From: a bacterium
Lineage (GTDB): Bacteria > Zhuqueibacterota > Zhuqueibacteria > Residuimicrobiales > Krinioviventaceae
Direction: 5' to 3'
NCBI GenBank assembly: GCA_963693055.1
Contig: OY843751.1
Location: forward strand, 4,544,001 to 4,608,000
Length of the DNA stretch: 64,000 nt
The notes below the pieces were generated by a model. That model was not told where the DNA came from and did no database searches. It worked only from the letters and a program-made list of their open reading frames with translations. Position numbers and translations under genes: made by a program. Below are positions 32,107 through 54,477 of this stretch, piece after piece (positions within the stretch are counted from its first letter, which is position 1; each line of letters begins with the position of its first letter).

Positions 32107-32191
32107 AGTTTTCAGTTATCAGTCATATTAAATCATTTAATAAACTCAAAATAGATAGCCACTGAAAACTGCATACTGATAACTGATTACT
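32107..32191. repeat. Inverted heptamer-repeat hairpin (type A)
   Basis: agttttcagttatcagt ... actgaaaactgcatactgataactgattact, directly after the stop of 32193. Confidence 0.8.
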
Positions 32192-41936: not shown

Positions 41937-42023
41937 AGTCATCAGTAATCAGTCGTCAGTTATCAGTTTAAAAACGACTTGATACATCTTTTACTGAGAA
42001 CTGAATACTGATTACTGACCACT
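41937..42023. repeat. Inverted heptamer-repeat hairpin (type A)
   Basis: agtcatcagtaatcagtcgtcagttatcagt / actgagaactgaatactgattactgaccact. Confidence 0.85.
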
Positions 42024-44404: not shown

Positions 44405-44429
44405 TTTCGATTCTTCACTCCTGTTTTTT

Positions 44430-44486
44430 GCTTATAGCTAATAGCTGAAAGCAGCTCATCTCACATTTCACGTCTCACGTCTGACG
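44430..44486. repeat. Two adjacent heptamer tracts (GCT-type and TCTCACG-type)
   Basis: gcttata-gctaata-gctgaaa-gc, then atctcac-atttcac-gtctcac-gtctgac-g abutting the stop of 44487. Confidence 0.65.
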
Positions 44487-46823
44487 TTACTCATACCTCA
44501 ACGTTTTTACAGGATCCATCGTTGCGACTTTGAGGGTTTGCCAGCTTGTGGTGAATACAGCAATTCCTAAAGCCATAAATCCTGCCAGTACGAATATCCA
44601 AAATTGCAAATCAATACGATACGCATAATTCTGCAGCCACTTGTTCATCATGTACCAGGTTAGCGGCCAGGCGATAATATTTGCCGCCAATACCCAGCGT
44701 GCAAAATCACTTGTCATTAAAAGGATGATTCCCGATACCGGCGCACCTAAAACTTTACGGATGCCAATTTCCTTGGTGCGTTGTTCAGCGGTAAACATGG
44801 ACAAGCCCAGCAATCCCAAGCCCGCAATAACCAGAGCAAGCGCTGTAAAACTGTTGATTACATTTTCAACTTTTTGATCAGCTTTATAATAATCATTAAT
44901 TTCTTCATCTATAAAACTGTACTCAAATGGATCATCAGGGACCAGAGTCTTCCAGAGGGACTCTATTTCATTGATTGTACTGTTCAAACCCGTGGGTTCT
45001 ACTCGTACTATTAAAAATCTTGTATTTTCTGCTTTATTATTGATCATTAACGGACCAATCTTTTCGTGTAGTGAACGAAAATTAAAATCCTTTACAACCC
45101 CAATAACCGTTCGATCACCAACCCGCTTACCCACAGCATCATCAAATCCCATCATTTTCATGGCAGCTTCATTGATCACCAGGCTTGAGGAAGAATCAGA
45201 CGGAAACTCGCGCGAGAAAAAACGTCCCTGTACCATCTGCATTTCAAGGGTACTCACCATATCATTATCCGCAGATAATATATGGATCAGGAAATTCTCT
45301 TCACCTCTTCGCTCTTCCCAGTCATCCATAACGATAGAATGCCCAAGATATGAAGGTGAATACGAAACCCCACTCGCGCTCGTTACAAAACGGCATCCCT
45401 CTATCTCTCTTTTCAATAATTCAATTTGGGTTGCCGGTTTATTTTGCAAATCTATCAATAAAACATTTCTCTGATTATACCCAAGTTTATGGTTACGCAT
45501 ATAATGCAGCTGCTGATTTATTACCATTGAACTGGCAATCAAAACAATGGTTATAACAAACTGAAATGAAACCAACACCCGGCGAAAAGCTTTACCTTTT
45601 AACCCAAATCCCGATTTAGCTTTCAATACTTTAACCGGATTAAATGATGACATAAAGAATGCAGGATAACTACCGGATATCACTCCGGTCAAAAACGCGA
45701 TCAATATAAATCCAATCAATATCCTGACATCCTGGATTATCCTGATTGATAATTGTTTACCGGAAATCATTTCAAAAACAGGCATGAACAGTTTCAATAA
45801 CACCAGGGAGATCAGAAAAGCAGTAAACGTGTAAATCAGTGTCTCGCCCATAAACTGCATTACCAAATCTTTTTTCCCGGCCCCTATCACTTTGCGCAGC
45901 CCCACCTCCATTGAACGGTTACCTGCTCTCGCGGTGCTCAGATTCATAAAATTGATACATGCCAGCAACAACACAATCACAGCCAATATTGAAAAAATAT
46001 AAATATATCGTATATCCCCATTACCGCCCATACCCCACATGGTCCCGGATCTCAAATGGATATCGGTCAATGGCTGCAAGGACAGATCAACAAGCGCATC
46101 TTTAAACCGGTCTTTAATAATGGGTTTAATTTTTTCATCAACAACGCTTTCGTCAATTCCATCTTTCAGCTTGACAAATGTAGAGAACGCGTAATAATTC
46201 CAATTCTCTTTGGGTTCTCCAAAGTTGTCAATGGATTCAAAAGGAATAATAAACTTGAAACTATGGATTGTATTAGAGGGCAGTGTTTTCAAAACACCGG
46301 TAACTTTATAATCATGTTTACTGTCAATACGCAGTGTCTTTCCCAAAGCGTCAACAGTGCCAAAATACTTTATTGCCATGGGCTCTGTCAATAGAATTGA
46401 CATGGGTTCAGTTAATGCATTCTCAGGTGTTCCGCTTGCAAATCCAAAACTGAAATAGTCGAAAAAATTCTGATCAGCACACAAGATCCGTGTTTCGTTG
46501 AATTGCTTGTCTTCATATTGTAACACATGCTTCCCAATGGATTTCATGCGCAGAGCACTCTGAATTTCAGGATAATCCGTGGCAAGTAATGGTCCAAGGT
46601 CTGGTGGATTGGTTGAAAACAACAAAACCTCTCCGTTTGAATAAGTTTCAATATCGATTACCCGGTAGATTTTCTCCGCATCGTCATGAAACCGGTCAAA
46701 GCTTAACTCATCCTGCACCCATAATAAAATAAATAACGCGCAAACCATACCCAGCGCCAATCCCAGAATGTTGATTGTAGAATGGATTTTATTTTTTAAT
46801 AATTGCCTGATTATAATCTTCAT
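44487..46823 (-). CDS. MacB/FtsX-type ABC permease, copy 3
   Basis: ACINFMNLSTAR, RTKEIGIRKVLGA, DPVKTLRYE. Confidence 0.92.
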   Translation of the reverse strand: MKIIIRQLLKNKIHSTINILGLALGMVCALFILLWVQDELSFDRFHDDAEKIYRVIDIETYSNGEVLLFSTNPPDLGPLLATDYPEIQSALRMKSIGKHVLQYEDKQFNETRILCADQNFFDYFSFGFASGTPENALTEPMSILLTEPMAIKYFGTVDALGKTLRIDSKHDYKVTGVLKTLPSNTIHSFKFIIPFESIDNFGEPKENWNYYAFSTFVKLKDGIDESVVDEKIKPIIKDRFKDALVDLSLQPLTDIHLRSGTMWGMGGNGDIRYIYIFSILAVIVLLLACINFMNLSTARAGNRSMEVGLRKVIGAGKKDLVMQFMGETLIYTFTAFLISLVLLKLFMPVFEMISGKQLSIRIIQDVRILIGFILIAFLTGVISGSYPAFFMSSFNPVKVLKAKSGFGLKGKAFRRVLVSFQFVITIVLIASSMVINQQLHYMRNHKLGYNQRNVLLIDLQNKPATQIELLKREIEGCRFVTSASGVSYSPSYLGHSIVMDDWEERRGEENFLIHILSADNDMVSTLEMQMVQGRFFSREFPSDSSSSLVINEAAMKMMGFDDAVGKRVGDRTVIGVVKDFNFRSLHEKIGPLMINNKAENTRFLIVRVEPTGLNSTINEIESLWKTLVPDDPFEYSFIDEEINDYYKADQKVENVINSFTALALVIAGLGLLGLSMFTAEQRTKEIGIRKVLGAPVSGIILLMTSDFARWVLAANIIAWPLTWYMMNKWLQNYAYRIDLQFWIFVLAGFMALGIAVFTTSWQTLKVATMDPVKTLRYE

Positions 46824-46842: not shown

Positions 46843-46919
46843 GGTTTTCAGTAATCAGTTGGCAGTTTACAGTAACAAGTTCCGTTTTACTGATAACTGA
46901 ATACTGATAACCGTCAACT
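46843..46919. repeat. Inverted heptamer-repeat hairpin (type A)
   Basis: ggttttcagtaatcagttggcagtttacagt-aacaagttccgtttt-actgataactgaatactgataaccgtcaact. Confidence 0.85.
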
Positions 46920-49289
46920 TTATTCATACCTCAACGCCTTTACCGGATCAGCCGTTGCCGCTTTAATCACCTGCAAACTCACGGTCAGCATGGCAATCAA
47001 AAGCGCTGCGGCACCTGCCAGCAAAAACGGCCATACGGTAATATTAATCCGGTAAGCAAAATTCTCTAACCATTTATGCATAGCATACCAGGCTATGGGC
47101 CAGGAAATCACACTGGAAATCAGAATACGATTTATAAATCCACCCAGCAATAATCTGAGAATACTGCTCAATGAAGCGCCCAGCACTTTACGTACACCAA
47201 TCTCTTTGGTGCGTTTTTCAGCCATAAACGAGGCAAATCCAAACAGTCCCAGGCACGAGATAAATATGGCAAATACGGTAAATCCGTTAAAAAGGAGTTT
47301 GATCCGCTGTTCCAATTGATACATGCGTTCATATCGTTCATCCAAAAAGCTGTATTCCAGGGGATATCCTGTCACGCGTCTGTCCCAAACACTTTTAATT
47401 GACCGGACACTCTCATCGATCCTGTCACCGGTTCGTACCAAAAGAGTGAATCCCATAGCGCTGATGGGCTCTTCTGTCATGGGTAAAAATACTTGTGGTT
47501 CCACGCTTTTATGCAGCGAGTGAAAATTGGCATCTTTGATCACACCCACAATAGTTCTCGGATTGTCATTTCCATAAACCGTGATCGTTTTCCCGATGGG
47601 GTCTGTTATACCCATCCGGCTCAAACCGGTTTCATTGATAATAACCGAGTTATTCACATCTCCGGGATGTTCCAATGAAAAACTCCTGCCAAACAAAAGC
47701 GCTACATTCAGGTCCGATAAATAGGATTCGTTGATCCAGTTGACCTCCCACAATACATCCTCATCCGGGTCGTTGCCCTGCCAGTTCACGGATTGGGTGG
47801 CACGGGCTATATGCTCGGGAGAACAGTTTTTCACAGCCACACCGGCAATTCCGGGTTGACGCAGCAGTTCATCCCGCATGGATTCATAATCCACATCAAC
47901 ACCCCGGTTTACTTCCACACACAATACATTATCTTTATTGAAACCCAAAGATTTGTTCTGCAGAAAATGTACCTGCTCATTTACAACCAGCATTCCGGTT
48001 ATTAATGCAATAGACAGGGAAAACTGAACAATAGTGAGTATATGACGGAACCCAAAAGTTTTTCCCGCTTGAATTTTTTGTTTAAATGCCCCTTGCGGCT
48101 TGATCGCTGAAAGATAAAACGCGGGATATGCTCCCGCAATCAATGCGGTAACAATCAAAATGCCCACCAACGAGAACAAGAACCTCGGATCGACCAGATT
48201 CAATGCACATACAGAACTTGATAATTTTGCATAAATGGGACATCCTATAACTGCAAGTCCCAGTGCAAGGATAAATGCTGCAAATGTAATCAGAAACGAT
48301 TCACCCATAAACTGCATTACAATATCTTTTCTGGCTGCTCCCATCACCTTTTTCAAACCGATCTCTTTGGCGCGATTGGTAAACCGGGCTGTGGATATGC
48401 TCATATAGTTGATACAGGCTATGAGCAAAATGAAAACAGCAATGACAGAAAATATATAAATATAATTTCGGTTCACGTTGGTACTGTCATCATTGAACAA
48501 GCCAGGCTCTAGATGTATAGATTGTAACGGCTGTAATTCAAAACTCTTGTTTGTATTCGGATTCGAATTATTCTTCTTATACAACGCGGTAATATTACCG
48601 GCTACCGCCTGGGGGTCGGATTGCTCATCTATCAATACATATGTATATGTGGGGAACCGGTTCCAGCGTGTCAGCAGATCGTTACGTTTTTCAGCCGCTT
48701 CAAAAGAAGTCAGAAAACGGAATCCCATATGCGAGTTTTCCGGCCAATCCTTTATAACCGCTGAAACGGTCATCAATTGATCATTCACCTCTAGCTGTCG
48801 GTTGAGCGGATATTGATCGCCAAAATATTTTTTTGCCGCGCTTTCCGTAAAAACAATCCTGCCCGGAGCAGATAATGCATTTCGGGCATCACCAGCTAAA
48901 AACTCGACTGAAAAAATATCAAAAAAGGACGGGTCAGCTACCGCCACCCCATTTTCAAACATGGCTTCATTATTATAACGAAACAATGTATTAACCCCGC
49001 TCCTGAACCGCGTTGCATTTACCACCTGCGGCAATTCTTGTTCAAGCTCAGGCGCCATTGGACCGGGAGTAGAAGCCCATTTTGCAGCATCATCATGAAA
49101 ATCAGCTATCACCCGGTAAACCCGTTCCGATTTTTCATTAAATGCGTCATACCCTAACTCATGCTGCACCCACTGTAAAATAAATATCACACAGGCCAAA
49201 CTCACCGCCAGCCCGGTTATATTTAAAATGGAGTATTGTTTATGTTTTAACAAATTTCGTATCGCAATTTTCAGATAATTAATTAACAT
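46920..49289 (-). CDS. MacB/FtsX-type ABC permease, copy 2
   Basis: MLINYLKIAIRNL, ACINYMSISTAR, DPVKALRYE. Confidence 0.93.
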   Translation of the reverse strand: MLINYLKIAIRNLLKHKQYSILNITGLAVSLACVIFILQWVQHELGYDAFNEKSERVYRVIADFHDDAAKWASTPGPMAPELEQELPQVVNATRFRSGVNTLFRYNNEAMFENGVAVADPSFFDIFSVEFLAGDARNALSAPGRIVFTESAAKKYFGDQYPLNRQLEVNDQLMTVSAVIKDWPENSHMGFRFLTSFEAAEKRNDLLTRWNRFPTYTYVLIDEQSDPQAVAGNITALYKKNNSNPNTNKSFELQPLQSIHLEPGLFNDDSTNVNRNYIYIFSVIAVFILLIACINYMSISTARFTNRAKEIGLKKVMGAARKDIVMQFMGESFLITFAAFILALGLAVIGCPIYAKLSSSVCALNLVDPRFLFSLVGILIVTALIAGAYPAFYLSAIKPQGAFKQKIQAGKTFGFRHILTIVQFSLSIALITGMLVVNEQVHFLQNKSLGFNKDNVLCVEVNRGVDVDYESMRDELLRQPGIAGVAVKNCSPEHIARATQSVNWQGNDPDEDVLWEVNWINESYLSDLNVALLFGRSFSLEHPGDVNNSVIINETGLSRMGITDPIGKTITVYGNDNPRTIVGVIKDANFHSLHKSVEPQVFLPMTEEPISAMGFTLLVRTGDRIDESVRSIKSVWDRRVTGYPLEYSFLDERYERMYQLEQRIKLLFNGFTVFAIFISCLGLFGFASFMAEKRTKEIGVRKVLGASLSSILRLLLGGFINRILISSVISWPIAWYAMHKWLENFAYRINITVWPFLLAGAAALLIAMLTVSLQVIKAATADPVKALRYE

Positions 49290-49351
49290 TGAATTTCCTG
49301 GAATATTGAAAACACTCTATTTTTATCTATACTAAATTATTATTTATATCT

Positions 49352-49429
49352 AGTCATCAGTAATCAGTCGTCAGTTTACAGCAACAAGTTCCGTTATTAC
49401 TGATAACTGAATACTGACAACCGAAAACT
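49352..49429. repeat. Inverted heptamer-repeat hairpin (type A), near-identical to 46843-46919
   Basis: agtcatcagtaatcagtcgtcagtttacagc-aacaagttccgttatt-actgataactgaatactgacaaccgaaaact. Confidence 0.85.
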
Positions 49430-51742
49430 TTATTCATACCTCAACGCCTCTACCGGATTCGCCGTAGCGGTTTTGATTACCTGCCAGCTTGTGGTCAGTA
49501 GAGCAATGGACAAAGCTGCAATACCCGAGATGGCAAATATCCACCAGCCCAACTCAGTACGATACGCAAAACTCTCAAGCCACTTGTTCATGATATACCA
49601 GCTCATCGGTACAGCGATAACAAATGCAATAACGGTCCATTTCAGCATATCCCGGTTCAGCAGGGCTGTTATCTCCCGCACTGATGCACCATTCACTTTG
49701 CGAATGCCTACCTCTTTGGCGCGACGTCGGGTCGTAAACTGCACCACACCAAAGGTACCCATAGCTGTAATCAGCAGGGCAATTACAGAAAAAATCCGGA
49801 TTGCGAATCCCAGTCTTTCTTCAGATTTATACATGGCATCATACCATTCGTCATAAAAAGAATATTCTAATACAAATTCAGGACAAACCTCATCCCAAAC
49901 ATTCTGGATATAATCCAAAGTGCCTGAAATATTTTCAGGAGCAATTCTCAGAGACAGCCAGGTATAATAGCTATCCTGATTATAAATAAAAAACGCGGGT
50001 TCAAGAGATTTGTACATACTCTCCGTATGAAAATCCTTAACGACTCCAATCACATCATTACCATTAATCTTTTTGTCCACAATTGAATTCCAGTTCACCA
50101 ATTTCCTGGCAGATTCATTAATGATAATGACATTGTTTTTCTCTGTTTCAATAAAATTTCTACCCTCAATGACCGAAATATCAAAAACATTGAAAAAATC
50201 CGTATCTACCATAAAAGTGGATACACTTTCTTTCCAGGTTCCCGCATCATACGCTTCATTCCATCCGTTTCCCATATATACTGCACCGGGACCGCTGTTT
50301 GAACAGGTCACATGATAAATTTGCGGAGATTCTGCAATTTTCTGTTTCAACAAGGGCAGTTTATCCTTGATCCGCCATGACACTTCAATCTTGACCAGGC
50401 AATCCTTGTCAAATCCCCAATCCATATTTTTAACATGCTTCATCTGAAGACTGATCACGATCAGCGCCGTGATCAGGATAATACTTACGGTATACTGCAC
50501 AGTCAGTAATCCCGCCTTGATCTTGAGCGCATTCCCATCAACATTGCGAAACATGGAGAGAACCGAGTAACGCGACGCCAGTATCGCGGGAAACAATCCT
50601 GCCAGTACCGAAATAAAAATCAACCCCGCAGGGATCAACAGGACCGTGGGCATCGAGTAAATATAATTCATATCAAAGGACTTGTTGACAATAGACTCAA
50701 ACACCGGTTTGGTCAAACCGGACAATAAAATAGCTGCCAAAAGTGATATGGCGCCAATCATTACAGATTCCAGAATAAATTGAAAAAATATAGTTTTACA
50801 ACCAGCGCCGACGGTCTTTTTAGTGCCAATCTCTTTGATCCGGGTCATATATTGTGCTGTAAACAAAACAATAAAATTTAAAATCGAGATTAAAAGAACC
50901 AACAGGGCAATTGCTCCCAAAATACGGATCAATCGCAAATTGGCGTGCATTAAATGGCTGCTGTCCCGGGCATCACTGAAATACGAATCTTTTAGAGACA
51001 TCAGATGGACCGGGTTATCCACCATATCATGATCAATTAAATGCGCGGACAATTTTCCATTAACTGCCGAAACATCACTGCCAGGCTCAAGCAGTACAAA
51101 ATAACGGTTAAAATATATTGTCTCACCATCATTTGTATAGCTGTTGACAACTGTTTTCAGGTCTCTGTGAATTATGGCTTTTGGCTGAAGACTGGAATTT
51201 CCAGGCAAGGATTTAATCACTGCACTCACGGTTAGATCATTTTTATGATATACCGTTAACGGTTCTCCAACAGGATTCCGTTCACCAAACAGTTTTTGTG
51301 CAATTTCTTCAGTCAAAATGATGGAATTTATATCGCTCAGAGCTGTCTCTTTGTTACCATATACAAAATCCACATCAAAAATATCAAAGAATGATGGTTC
51401 GGTATGCAGAATTTGATTGACCTTGAACGAATGCAGATCATGGGTCAATGCACCCCGGAAATTGATAAAATAGTTATATCGGCATACCTGTTCAATTTCA
51501 GGGAAATCATGGGTCAGATAATCAATTGCATCTTCGTTAATATCACTCTTGTCACCGTCTTTGATTATCCGATAAATACGGTCGACTTTGCTAAAAGCCC
51601 GGTCATAAGACAATTCATTAAATACAAAAGCGGATAACAGCAGGACCACTGTCAGGCTCAGTGTAAATCCTGATATGGTAATAACCGAGAATGTCTTGTT
51701 CCTGATCAAATTTCTATAAAACAACCGAAAAAAATGGATCAT
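49430..51742 (-). CDS. MacB/FtsX-type ABC permease, copy 1
   Basis: Start MIHFFRLFYRNL after a GGGAG RBS; RAKEVGIRKVNGAS, NPVEALRYE. Confidence 0.92.
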   Translation of the reverse strand: MIHFFRLFYRNLIRNKTFSVITISGFTLSLTVVLLLSAFVFNELSYDRAFSKVDRIYRIIKDGDKSDINEDAIDYLTHDFPEIEQVCRYNYFINFRGALTHDLHSFKVNQILHTEPSFFDIFDVDFVYGNKETALSDINSIILTEEIAQKLFGERNPVGEPLTVYHKNDLTVSAVIKSLPGNSSLQPKAIIHRDLKTVVNSYTNDGETIYFNRYFVLLEPGSDVSAVNGKLSAHLIDHDMVDNPVHLMSLKDSYFSDARDSSHLMHANLRLIRILGAIALLVLLISILNFIVLFTAQYMTRIKEIGTKKTVGAGCKTIFFQFILESVMIGAISLLAAILLSGLTKPVFESIVNKSFDMNYIYSMPTVLLIPAGLIFISVLAGLFPAILASRYSVLSMFRNVDGNALKIKAGLLTVQYTVSIILITALIVISLQMKHVKNMDWGFDKDCLVKIEVSWRIKDKLPLLKQKIAESPQIYHVTCSNSGPGAVYMGNGWNEAYDAGTWKESVSTFMVDTDFFNVFDISVIEGRNFIETEKNNVIIINESARKLVNWNSIVDKKINGNDVIGVVKDFHTESMYKSLEPAFFIYNQDSYYTWLSLRIAPENISGTLDYIQNVWDEVCPEFVLEYSFYDEWYDAMYKSEERLGFAIRIFSVIALLITAMGTFGVVQFTTRRRAKEVGIRKVNGASVREITALLNRDMLKWTVIAFVIAVPMSWYIMNKWLESFAYRTELGWWIFAISGIAALSIALLTTSWQVIKTATANPVEALRYE

Positions 51743-51815
51743 CATTACTCCCAAAATCAATCAATATACCAAATCAACGCACCTGTTCTTTAAATCATCA
51801 TTATTTACCAACCAT

Positions 51816-51905
51816 AGTTTTCAGTCGGTAGTTATCAGTTTTCAAAATACTATTTACATTCCACATAATATTTTACTGATTACAGACTACTGAAAACTGA
51901 CAACT
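51816..51905. repeat. Inverted heptamer-repeat hairpin (type A) after the first ATPase
   Basis: agttttcagtcggtagttatcagttttc ... actgattacagactactgaaaactgacaact. Confidence 0.8.
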
Positions 51906-51910
51906 CGTTT

Positions 51911-52600
51911 TTATACATGAAACTGGTTCTGCATATTTTCTGTCACTACCTTGCCGTCGAACAAGTGCACAATACGATTACTGAATTCCGCGTACGTTGG
52001 CGAGTGGGTTACCATTACAATAGTGGTGCCTTTATCATTCAGCTCGGTGAGAATACTCATCACTTCGTCACCATGACGTGAATCGAGATTACCGGTCGGT
52101 TCATCCGCGAGGATCACTTTGGGATCTGCTACAACCGCACGCGCAACCGCCACACGCTGTTGCTGACCACCGGACAACTGCTGCGGAAAGTGGTTTTTAC
52201 GATGCATGATCTGCATGTATTCCATGGCATGCTCTACACGCTCTTTGCGCTCTTTGGCCGGGACTTTCATATACAGCAGCGGCAGTTCAATGTTCTCAAA
52301 TACTGTCAACTCATCGATCAGATTAAACGATTGAAAGATGAATCCAATATTGCCTTTCCGCAGATTGGCGCGCTGACGTTCGTTGTATTTGGCAACATTC
52401 TCACCATTGAAAAAATAATCACCATCATCAATGGTATCAATCAGCCCAATCACATTCAACAGTGTCGATTTGCCACACCCTGACGGCCCCATTATGGCCA
52501 CAAACTCGCCTTCATTGGCCTGAAAATTAATATTATTCAGCGCCGTTGTCTCAATCTCATCTGTACGATAGACTTTGTTAAGATTTGTTGTTTTGATCAT
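51911..52600 (-). CDS. ABC transporter ATP-binding protein (MacB/LolD type)
   Basis: [33 protein letters not shown]. Confidence 0.95.
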   Translation of the reverse strand: MIKTTNLNKVYRTDEIETTALNNINFQANEGEFVAIMGPSGCGKSTLLNVIGLIDTIDDGDYFFNGENVAKYNERQRANLRKGNIGFIFQSFNLIDELTVFENIELPLLYMKVPAKERKERVEHAMEYMQIMHRKNHFPQQLSGGQQQRVAVARAVVADPKVILADEPTGNLDSRHGDEVMSILTELNDKGTTIVMVTHSPTYAEFSNRIVHLFDGKVVTENMQNQFHV

Positions 52601-52665
52601 TGTTGTGTCCTTTATAAATATTTGCTACATGATTTCTATTTTAATTAAATTTATTGATTCCCAAT

Positions 52666-52695
52666 AGTATTCAGTACTCAGTTTTCAGTATTCAG
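52666..52695. repeat. Heptamer arm downstream of the four-helix-bundle gene
   Basis: agtattc-agtactc-agttttc-agtattc-ag, complementary in register to the (CTGACAA)6 tract. Confidence 0.8.
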
Positions 52696-52705
52696 AAAAA
52701 GCAGG

Positions 52706-53071
52706 TTATTCTTTTTGAGATTTTACTTTCTTGATCAAAGATGTTAACATCCGTTTTATTTCCTGAATCTGTTTTGTCAATTCGTTAAATAAATCAACAT
52801 CAATATATTCCAGGTCATTAGATAACATGATCTGATATTCCAATTCGCTGGCTGATCCCATCGCTATAAACAGAAATCGATTAAAATCAGATTTACTGCT
52901 ACGACAACACCCTTCAGCAATATTCGATGGAATTGACACTGCACATCTTCGTATTTGACTCGTTAAACCAAACATCTCTTCCTTGGGATAATTCTTTGTA
53001 ACTTTATAAATTTTCAATACCATCAAATGACTCTTTTCCCATACTACCAACTTTTTAAAATCCTGCATCAT
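52706..53071 (-). CDS. Four-helix-bundle protein (23S rRNA intervening-sequence protein / Avd-like family)
   Basis: FKKLVVWEKS, YPKEEMFGLTSQIRRCAVSIPSNIAEG, FLFIAMGSASELEYQ signature; GGAGG RBS. Confidence 0.9.
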   Translation of the reverse strand: MMQDFKKLVVWEKSHLMVLKIYKVTKNYPKEEMFGLTSQIRRCAVSIPSNIAEGCCRSSKSDFNRFLFIAMGSASELEYQIMLSNDLEYIDVDLFNELTKQIQEIKRMLTSLIKKVKSQKE

Positions 53072-53127
53072 TTTCCTCCGAGTTATTTATCTACTCCTGA
53101 ATCCTGACTTCTGGCTGATAGTTTTTT

Positions 53128-53169
53128 CTGACAACTGACAACTGACAACTGACAACTGACAACTGACAA
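53128..53169. repeat. Perfect tandem heptamer (CTGACAA)6 upstream of the four-helix-bundle gene
   Basis: Six exact copies; degenerate copies (cctgaat-cctgact-tctggct) at ~53096-53116. Confidence 0.95.
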
Positions 53170-53226
53170 CACTAAAAAAAGATAATAATTATATTCAAGC
53201 ATTCCTTTTAGTTTAAATGCATATTA

Positions 53227-54477
53227 CTATTTAAGAACCAACACATCAATATCCCCAAACGTCTCATATGATGAAGTAATGACATTTTCGCCCGGCTCCA
53301 GACCTTCAAGCACTTCATAATCACGGGTGTTTTGGCGGCCAATCCGGATGTCACGCTTGCGTGCGGTGCTGCCGTCATCATCAACCACATACACCCATTG
53401 CCCGCCGGTAGAACTGTAAAATCCGCCTGTAGCCAGCAAGAGTGCTTCCGAAAGATCGCCCAGTGCCAATCGGATATGTACCGTCTGACCACGACGAATG
53501 CCTTCCGGTTCAGCTCCTACAAATTCCATATCCACTTCAAAACGCCCTTCAAGCACTTCGGGATATATTTTTTTGATTACAAGCTTGTGGTCCTTTCCCG
53601 CAAAAGTAAACTCGCCGGTCTGTCCGGGTGAAATACGTGCAATATAATGCTCATCTACCTGCACCCGGATCTTGAATCCATCCAGTACATCAATCTGCCC
53701 CAGTCGCTCCCCACGGGTCTTGGATTCCCCAATCTCGGCATTCAGGGATGTTAAATTTCCGGTAATGGGTGCGCGTAGTGTCAGATTTTCCATATTCTGC
53801 TTTACCAGATCAAGGTTATCTTCCATGCGATTTAACGATGCTTCCAGTTGCAGTACCTGCGACTCACGATACAACGAATCCTGCTTGTGCGAGGCCAGGG
53901 TAAGTTCGCGTTTTTTGGCAAGATACTCGTAATTGTCCCGCGCTTCCTCAAACTCTTTATCAGATATCAACTTTTTATCCAACAGTTCCTGTGCACGATC
54001 AAAAGCGCGCTTTTGCATTTTTAAACTGTAATCCAGTTCCAGCAGTTGGGCCTGCAGACTGAGACGTTTCTCTTCCATGCTCAAACGGGTATTACGCAGA
54101 TTATTGCTCTGTGCAAAAAGCTCCGCTTCACGATACATAATATCCATGATCAGATCCGTATTGGTAAGCTGCAATATGCTGTCGCCTTTTTGTACAAAGG
54201 TACCCGCTTCCAGAAACTTTGTCTCCACACGACCGCCTTCAATAGCATCCAGATATATGGTAGTAATTGGAATCACCGTGCCCGTCACCGGAATAAATTC
54301 CTGAAACTTGTCTTGTCTTACGGTGGATATGGTAATACGCTCGGCCTGAACATTCAGCCGCGAACTGTGATCGCTGAACAGCAATTGGTACAAAACAAAT
54401 ATAATAAATACTCCGCCCGCAGCAGTCATTGCAATTTTCTTTGGCGGCCACTTTTTCTTTTGAATTACTCGATCCAT
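53227..54477 (-). CDS. Periplasmic adaptor / membrane fusion protein (HlyD/MacA family)
   Basis: Single N-terminal TM helix, lipoyl-like IEGGRVE..VQKGD, coiled-coil hairpin, LRAPITG, GLEPGENVI. Confidence 0.92.
   Translation of the reverse strand: MDRVIQKKKWPPKKIAMTAAGGVFIIFVLYQLLFSDHSSRLNVQAERITISTVRQDKFQEFIPVTGTVIPITTIYLDAIEGGRVETKFLEAGTFVQKGDSILQLTNTDLIMDIMYREAELFAQSNNLRNTRLSMEEKRLSLQAQLLELDYSLKMQKRAFDRAQELLDKKLISDKEFEEARDNYEYLAKKRELTLASHKQDSLYRESQVLQLEASLNRMEDNLDLVKQNMENLTLRAPITGNLTSLNAEIGESKTRGERLGQIDVLDGFKIRVQVDEHYIARISPGQTGEFTFAGKDHKLVIKKIYPEVLEGRFEVDMEFVGAEPEGIRRGQTVHIRLALGDLSEALLLATGGFYSSTGGQWVYVVDDDGSTARKRDIRIGRQNTRDYEVLEGLEPGENVITSSYETFGDIDVLVLK

Follow-up and report, generated by a model that had tools for sequence, protein, structure and literature searches.

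The 121-aa four-helix-bundle gene on the minus strand at 52706..53071 of the window (the whole 64,000-nt stretch of DNA analysed here, to which coordinates refer unless prefixed) is best explained as a promoterless, exchangeable guest cassette, whose predicted pentameric product likely binds its own flanking repeat units sequence-specifically, DNA being a more probable target than a stem of paired mRNA; we give this reading a probability of about two in three. In such a cassette, inverted heptamer arrays flank the gene on both sides, the whole lies behind the stop codon of a host gene, and read-through of the host operon presumably provides expression. Throughout, G000 denotes the genome under study (6.5 Mb) and G001 its congener.

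In operon order, the genes are an efflux periplasmic adaptor gene (the upstream host gene, 53227..54477, profile match to TIGR01730), the family gene, an ABC transporter ATPase gene (the downstream host gene, 51911..52600, assigned by profile match) and then a run of MacB-like permease genes, the first three on the minus strand. The resident protein (Gln3, Lys60) scored 139 bits against TIGR02436 (cut-off 24) and 140 bits against PF05635 (cut-off 33.8) in profile searches; the Avd models fell below their cut-offs (NF033474, 36.5 vs 80; PF22296, 37.7 vs 40). Its gene has a GC content of 32 %, compared with 45–47 % in the neighbours. It is preceded by an inner leader (53072..53127, minus strand) in which some degenerate units occur; the leader also holds a ribosome-binding site, GGAGG (53075-53079), to which the second ATG, at 53068, is better suited as a start codon. 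A promoter scan returned nine sites against 5.6 ± 2.0 in shuffled sequences (i.e. no excess) and no terminator, and an Rfam search of positions 49200-53300 gave zero matches at E values up to 1. Positions 23694-51760 hold approximately eleven tandem paralogous MacB-like (ADOP-like) permease genes, a run that differs in gene content in G001; in relatives, the gaps of this run hold duplicated gene 3′ ends, which suggests recombination at conserved last codons.

The heptamer arms that the earlier note described around the gene, (TTGTCAG)6 on one side and four complementary units on the other, were confirmed. The 5′ arm (53128..53170, minus strand) comprises six perfect units (period 7, 6.1 copies, 100 % matches) with an A-tract after them and begins about 57 nt past the adaptor stop; the unit is TTGTCAG as transcribed, or GTTGTCA when written in the register of the family. 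This arm is one of only three perfect heptamer arrays with at least five copies in the whole 6.5-Mb genome, and DNA-type contigs of one sample (three runs) break at this arm. The 3′ arm (52666..52695, minus strand) is preceded by a T-tract and comprises four degenerate complementary units, CTGAATA, CTGAAAA, CTGAGTA and CTGAATA (4.3 copies, 82 % matches). The predicted fold (z −2.34; 1/100 shuffles as good) has the two arms paired and the ORF looped out between them, as the note had proposed; its ‘long stem’, however, resolves into 3–6-bp helices in series with internal loops between them, and the longest unbroken helix is 9 bp.

Evidence for exchange comes from the region directly after the adaptor stop, which we compared in the genomes that encode an orthologue of the adaptor (22 of 61 searched). 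The family gene is found at this position in five genomes (G000, G001, G014, G017 and G051) and is absent in nine. The note had recommended inspecting orthologous operons that lack the gene: in three of these nine the adaptor and ATPase genes lie only 10–11 nt apart, and in the other six the gap is ~70–130 nt and in some cases holds arm-like relics. An extra gene of ~515 aa follows the adaptor in a further four genomes, in two of which the cassette comes after the extra gene. The remaining junctions comprise three at contig edges and one with an unrecognised ORF in G004. The latter (L054:1154-1495) is an AT-rich, armless ORF of 114 codons in the adaptor–ATPase junction that matches zero families and may be a decayed cassette gene; since Pfam gave no match and our own profile scored it at 5.8 bits, it was not counted as a family member.

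Where the gene is present, its alleles differ far more than their surroundings. Between G000 and G001, the adaptors are 98 % identical and the ATPases 99 % (pS 0.35 and 0.42, respectively), whereas the cassette proteins share 61 % identity (pS 0.92, pN 0.24, synonymous sites saturated) and the arms are of GTT-type in G000 and GCT-type in G001. An armless paralogue elsewhere in the same two genomes encodes 100 % identical proteins (pS 0.08). Sequence identity stops within the last five adaptor codons and returns at the ATPase start codon, and the swapped tract may thus begin in those last five codons. Two further same-genus pairs display this pattern at the same junction: their ATPases share 92 % and 95 % identity (the second value covering 77 aa), but their cassette proteins come from distant clades and share only 42 % and 41 %. 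Relic arms are also present: G001 carries eight units of the other clade's type ahead of its own arm, and G017 retains a 3′ arm of the G000-clade type behind its own. The divergence of alleles between near-identical flanks, together with these relic arms, indicates that different cassettes have occupied the junction repeatedly. The note's insertable unit of gene plus arms is therefore upheld, being present, absent or replaced at one junction, with arms and protein changing together.

The arms are not peculiar to this locus. Our discovery set comprised 301 loci drawn from the phylum of G000 and from public collections of genomes, metagenomes and viruses (274 kept after duplicates and partial ORFs were dropped; 259 scored), and a held-out set comprised 89 loci from other groups (81 kept on the same grounds; 79 scored). 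Period-7 arrays lie upstream of the family gene in 155/257 loci, compared with 15/196 far flanks, and downstream in 167/265, compared with 11/206; inverted arms with the same core occur in 117/254 loci against 12.4 in shuffled pairs. By a joint score, matching inverted arms of 7- or 8-mers accompany 190 of the 259 family genes, compared with 1/170 control flanks, although survey loci were retrieved by motifs of the G000 clade and family-wide fractions are accordingly biased towards it. The 190 armed loci divide into 149 with heptamers and 41 with octamers, and the unit type tracks the protein clade. Cassettes are oriented as the upstream gene in 104/133 cases, and in 66 of these 104 the arm begins within 10 nt of the upstream stop. 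The family ORF is AT-richer than its flanks in 131/135 loci, and 158 upstream genes fall into 114 clusters, i.e. the neighbours are mostly unrelated. A search of viral contigs with the resident protein returned zero matches, and one with a relative returned six contigs encountered before, which were left out.

Family members lacking arms, which the note had named as counter-evidence, do exist. Genes that encode Glu53 fall below the arm threshold in 77/329 scored cases; the clear cases, however, belong to a single distinct group that lacks this otherwise invariant residue and of which 8/8 scored members are armless. The only paralogue in G000 (G000:C1:5878393-5878761) is armless and has no Glu53; it lies ahead of the same peptidase-like gene in several relatives and looks domesticated, judging by this context.

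Several further arrays adjoin CRISPR loci. At L006 (G050:C59:1541-4897), a CRISPR array ends in two neighbouring 8-mer cassettes, one filled (566 nt) and one empty (102 nt), both enclosed by copies of one 22-nt repeat core; L326 also adjoins a CRISPR-like array. In G000, nested heptamer arrays of three unit types (G000:C1:2562870-2563000, 2565400-2565870 and 2797200-2798500) form 160–210-nt inserts between truncated CRISPR repeat cores, the usual core spacing being 50–60 nt, near a cas6-like gene labelled by eye. Separately, most of the five GxxExxY (TIGR04256) genes of G000 (G000:C1: 5954822-5955166, 6492183-6492506, 1597127-1597474, 2044232-2044579 and 6207254-6207604) appear by eye to be flanked by their own inverted short-repeat arrays with a period of ~9–10 nt, and are possibly a parallel cassette family.

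As the note had stated, the resident protein belongs to the family known from 23S rRNA intervening sequences (IVSs) and has the Avd fold, on the evidence of the profile scores and of structural matches. Its model (pLDDT 96.5) has helices at residues 9–25, 30–55, 60–86 and 92–118 and superimposes on the five-chain structure 2GSC (Xcc0516) with a TM score of 0.91, an rmsd of 1.0 and ~40 % identity; against Avd, the TM score is 0.77–0.81. By analogy with the five-chain structures 2GSC and 2RLD, we infer that the protein is a pentamer. The helix topology of the model would place residues 3 and 55–61 at one end of the bundle, which has a net charge of +7, compared with −4 at the opposite end. The note had also suggested one repeat unit per subunit, and a length of mostly 4–5 units per arm, a count that may be shaped by the arm threshold, would be compatible with a pentamer.

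We looked for a correspondence between protein residues and repeat bases. Among all 149 heptamer loci, C occurs at unit position 2 in 34/47 with an acidic residue 60, compared with 20/102 of the others, although a strict independent-pairs test of this residue-60 rule over the same loci returned 1.0 same vs 1.4 opposite, i.e. no support. We then considered the G000 clade, defined by residues 15 and 55, leaving out loci with an arm score under 11 or a period of 8. In its 57 discovery loci, residues 3 and 60 ranked top among 1928 tests. Predictions were recorded before fresh loci were retrieved, the held-out loci sharing phylogeny with the discovery loci. In the 52 armed held-out loci of the clade, T was present at unit position 2 in 6/8 with Gln3 and 0/44 with another residue, and in 0/29 with Asp or Glu at position 60 compared with 6/23 without. 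The combined rule, Gln3 and no acid at residue 60, gave T in 20/21 loci compared with 1/88 otherwise and stands in each arm taken alone. Both congeners obey it, G000 having Gln3, Lys60 and T, and G001 having Gln3, Asp60 and C.

A poor, though not negligible, competitor is that arms and gene only travel together, the unit following the protein by descent and slippage with no recognition involved. Unit similarity does grow with protein identity, an AU test leaves a single origin of T-type cassettes standing (p 0.13), and the strict pairs lend no support to the rule; within the clade, the supported independent pairs number 1–2 on trees of these short proteins. Against this, a tree computed with columns 3 and 60 removed requires 15 changes of the T state (shuffle mean 19.6, minimum 16). 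Prediction from nearest neighbours or from other columns also falls far short of that from residues 3 and 60: nearest-neighbour prediction found 8 of the 21 T loci, and on held-out loci the residue 3 and 60 rule reached an MCC of 0.92, while the best rules from other columns had a mean of 0.06 and a maximum of 0.49. The armlessness of all eight members lacking Glu53 also argues against simple co-travel. The residue–base rule makes sequence-specific recognition by the protein of its own repeats likely, and the note's proposal that the protein recognises the heptamer units is thus probably right.

An RNA stem under selection should accumulate more G-U-forming than C-A-forming changes, and its variable positions should covary. 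Neither signature was detected in the arms. The G-U vs C-A asymmetry at conserved positions had an odds ratio (OR) of 0.84 in the discovery set (CI 0.55–1.29; 52:61 per locus) and of 1.72 in the held-out set (p 0.16, a non-significant lean towards G-U tolerance), and the combined sets gave no bias (OR 1.02, p 0.93). No G-U bias was found at the variable arm positions, nor was there order-specific complementarity between arms (186 vs 192 ± 7 in shuffles). In the hairpins of G000, bases pair at the five core positions but mostly not at the two variable ones. With neither G-U bias nor covariation between arms, the arms behave as strand-symmetric motif arrays, which favours DNA as the target.

These results also bear on the note's suggestion of an mRNA intervening sequence, in which the arms would pair in the transcript, the interrupted duplex would be bound by the protein, and the host genes would be insulated from the insert by the hairpin or by RNase III-type cleavage. 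This explanation has real attractions. The ORF is closed in the loop of the predicted fold, cassettes run in the host sense direction and begin at the host stop codon, the 23S IVS of Coxiella has heptamers before an ORF of the same kind and is cut by RNase III (PMC4990558), and in its solved complex Avd binds an RNA stem-loop and not DNA (10.1101/2023.10.23.563531). A protein that demands strict Watson–Crick cores could, moreover, mask a G-U bias. Nevertheless, in addition to the missing pairing signatures and the mismatched variable positions, the longest helix of 9 bp compares poorly with the 28-bp near-perfect stem in Coxiella, and most arrays in G000 lack a partner arm. We consider it unlikely that RNA pairing holds the unit together.

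In keeping with the note's picture of the locus as a ‘filled’ hairpin, there are gene-less hairpins built of the same unit further down the operon. Our repeat scan placed such hairpins on the minus strand after the ATPase stop (51820..51903, outer end approximate) and between permease genes (49354..49427, 46845..46910 and 32109..32189). A further gene-less hairpin lies at 41939..42021 (minus strand), where the orthologous gap in G001 has a GCT-type array, and arrays with other units, one type GTGAGAC-like and one GCTATTA-like, lie without a gene at 44429..44487 (minus strand); these two unit types match family clades that G000 does not encode. Genome-wide, G000 has 54 arrays of at least three resident-type units, 52 of them non-coding in a genome that is ~10 % non-coding; at the scan threshold, the reversed genome gave 3 matches compared with 67 in the real one. 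A same-strand stop codon lies within 20 nt before the array in 20 of the 52, compared with 2 in the opposite orientation and an expectation of 5.7 %. Only nine inward-facing pairs occur among the 54 arrays, most having no partner arm at the threshold used.

Might the protein act on these hairpins, as the note supposed, and serve as a host regulator of the transporter operon through the hairpin after each permease gene? The predicted T-type specificity of the G000 protein does correspond to the commonest array type in G000. However, T-type and C-type arrays are both present in both congeners, and in the stretches of G001 that we examined (35 array-bearing gaps, 15 of which can be matched to G000 on both sides), the array type is the same in 14/15 orthologous gaps though the resident proteins differ in predicted specificity. 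The one exception and three half-matched gaps do differ in the way that the two resident proteins would predict. A regulatory role would also have to accommodate a gene that is missing from the junction in at least 9/22 relatives, that is swapped between distant clades and whose neighbours are unrelated across the family. We regard this role as highly improbable, and the case for action on the downstream hairpins as weak. With array type unchanged in 14/15 gaps, the gene-less arrays look from their sequences like relics or passengers, mostly predating the resident protein, and not like a regulon.

Returning to the guest cassette, we can outline how it might work. Each subunit would read one 7-nt unit through the basic barrel end bearing residues 3 and 55–61; given the inversion of the arms, each DNA strand shows the same motif at one end, and binding would mark both ends of the cassette. 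How cassettes move is the weakest part of the model. As no recombinase, nuclease, reverse transcriptase (RT) or target duplication was found, we propose that homologous recombination by the host, acting in the ends of the flanking genes, could install and exchange cassettes and, equally tentatively, that loss of the gene would leave gene-less arrays behind. The four-helix-bundle ORF is the only one between the arms, with no transposase. Direct repeats of at least 12 nt flank 1/242 cassettes, namely the one in a CRISPR array, and 8–9-nt flanking matches are slightly in excess (33 vs 16.8 at ≥8 nt).

Known element types were considered and rejected. An insertion sequence or MITE does not fit a cassette with no transposase and no general target-site duplication. 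For an integron gene cassette, the genome has no TIGR02249 match over the cut-off; we take the consensus order of attC core sites to be the opposite of the arm order here. A diversity-generating retroelement is contradicted by the Avd scores under cut-off and by the lack of an RT adjoining the cassette. The only RT in G000 (G000:C1:4445790-4446950, ~150 kb from the cassette) is retron-like, with its best match, to the St85 family, below cut-off, and lies beside a umuDC-like pair; used as a query against the 259 loci it returned no matches, a weak test with a single distant query.

The closest described relatives are the 23S rRNA IVSs of Coxiella burnetii and Leptospira (PMC4990558), which likewise have a PF05635 ORF in sense orientation inside terminal inverted repeats, a lower GC content than the host and a sporadic distribution; in Coxiella, tandem heptamers (GACAGAT) lie ahead of the ORF. 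In contrast, the cassette studied here lies between protein-coding genes, and 0/355 loci are in 23S rRNA. The single 23S gene of the window lies elsewhere (11627-14622, 2996 nt); near the rRNA operon, an 89-nt repeat occurs three times at 16825-17087. The stem also differs, being interrupted every few base pairs with no RNA-pairing signature, and neither allele swapping nor a residue–base rule is part of the account in the available text of PMC4990558. The inverted repeats can pair, as in an IVS, but because the locus differs from one in both location and stem continuity, we did not file it there. Avd (PDB 4DWL, 8UB7), which has the same fold, is a pentameric basic barrel whose five protomers contact one RNA stem-loop through flipped bases in inter-protomer crevices (10.1101/2023.10.23.563531); the resident protein differs in its scores under the Avd cut-offs and in having no RT gene beside it. 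The closest solved relatives, Xcc0516 (PDB 2GSC) and BT_0352 (PDB 2RLD), have five chains each and are listed as uncharacterised, with no ligand or flanking repeat given in their records.

The repeats themselves have been described before. MacGregor (2015; PMC4679880, which cites Mrazek 2007) reported intergenic TAACTGA direct repeats in Beggiatoaceae, Cyanobacteria and Bacteroidetes; TAACTGA is the reverse complement of a common unit here, and the repeats are similarly intergenic, situated before start codons or just after stops, and of mixed heptamers. That study suggested a repeat-binding protein as a possible mobile element, with S1, Csp and CsrA as candidates, and found no mechanism; a term search of the available text and supplement gave no mention of the four-helix-bundle family. 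Elsewhere, family genes have been reported inside cas loci (PMC3936711), their likeness to Avd is in print (PMC10053308), scattered copies are known from rRNA insertions (10.1101/2024.02.27.582315) and such genes are merely listed in PMC5524665. Nothing in our literature search, from which subscription journals were mostly absent, described such a code or, outside rRNA, a cassette combining the gene with heptamers.

We tentatively extend the reading to the wider family, with slightly less than even confidence: the thousands of TIGR02436/PF05635 orphans may encode pentamers that read repeats through a residue-to-base code; each gene would carry binding sites of its own as inverted 7-/8-mer terminal arrays, spread with no transposase between a stop codon and the next ribosome-binding site (and also into CRISPR arrays and rRNA) and leave behind bacterial heptanucleotide repeats. 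If this is true, it would provide a ligand for a widespread family that is orphaned in function despite solved pentamer structures, and a source for the intergenic heptamer repeats of bacteria. The locus supplies a natural allele pair in sister species, with Lys or Asp at residue 60 and T or C as the predicted base, and a ring protein this small whose code can be read might find use as a programmable nucleic-acid binder.
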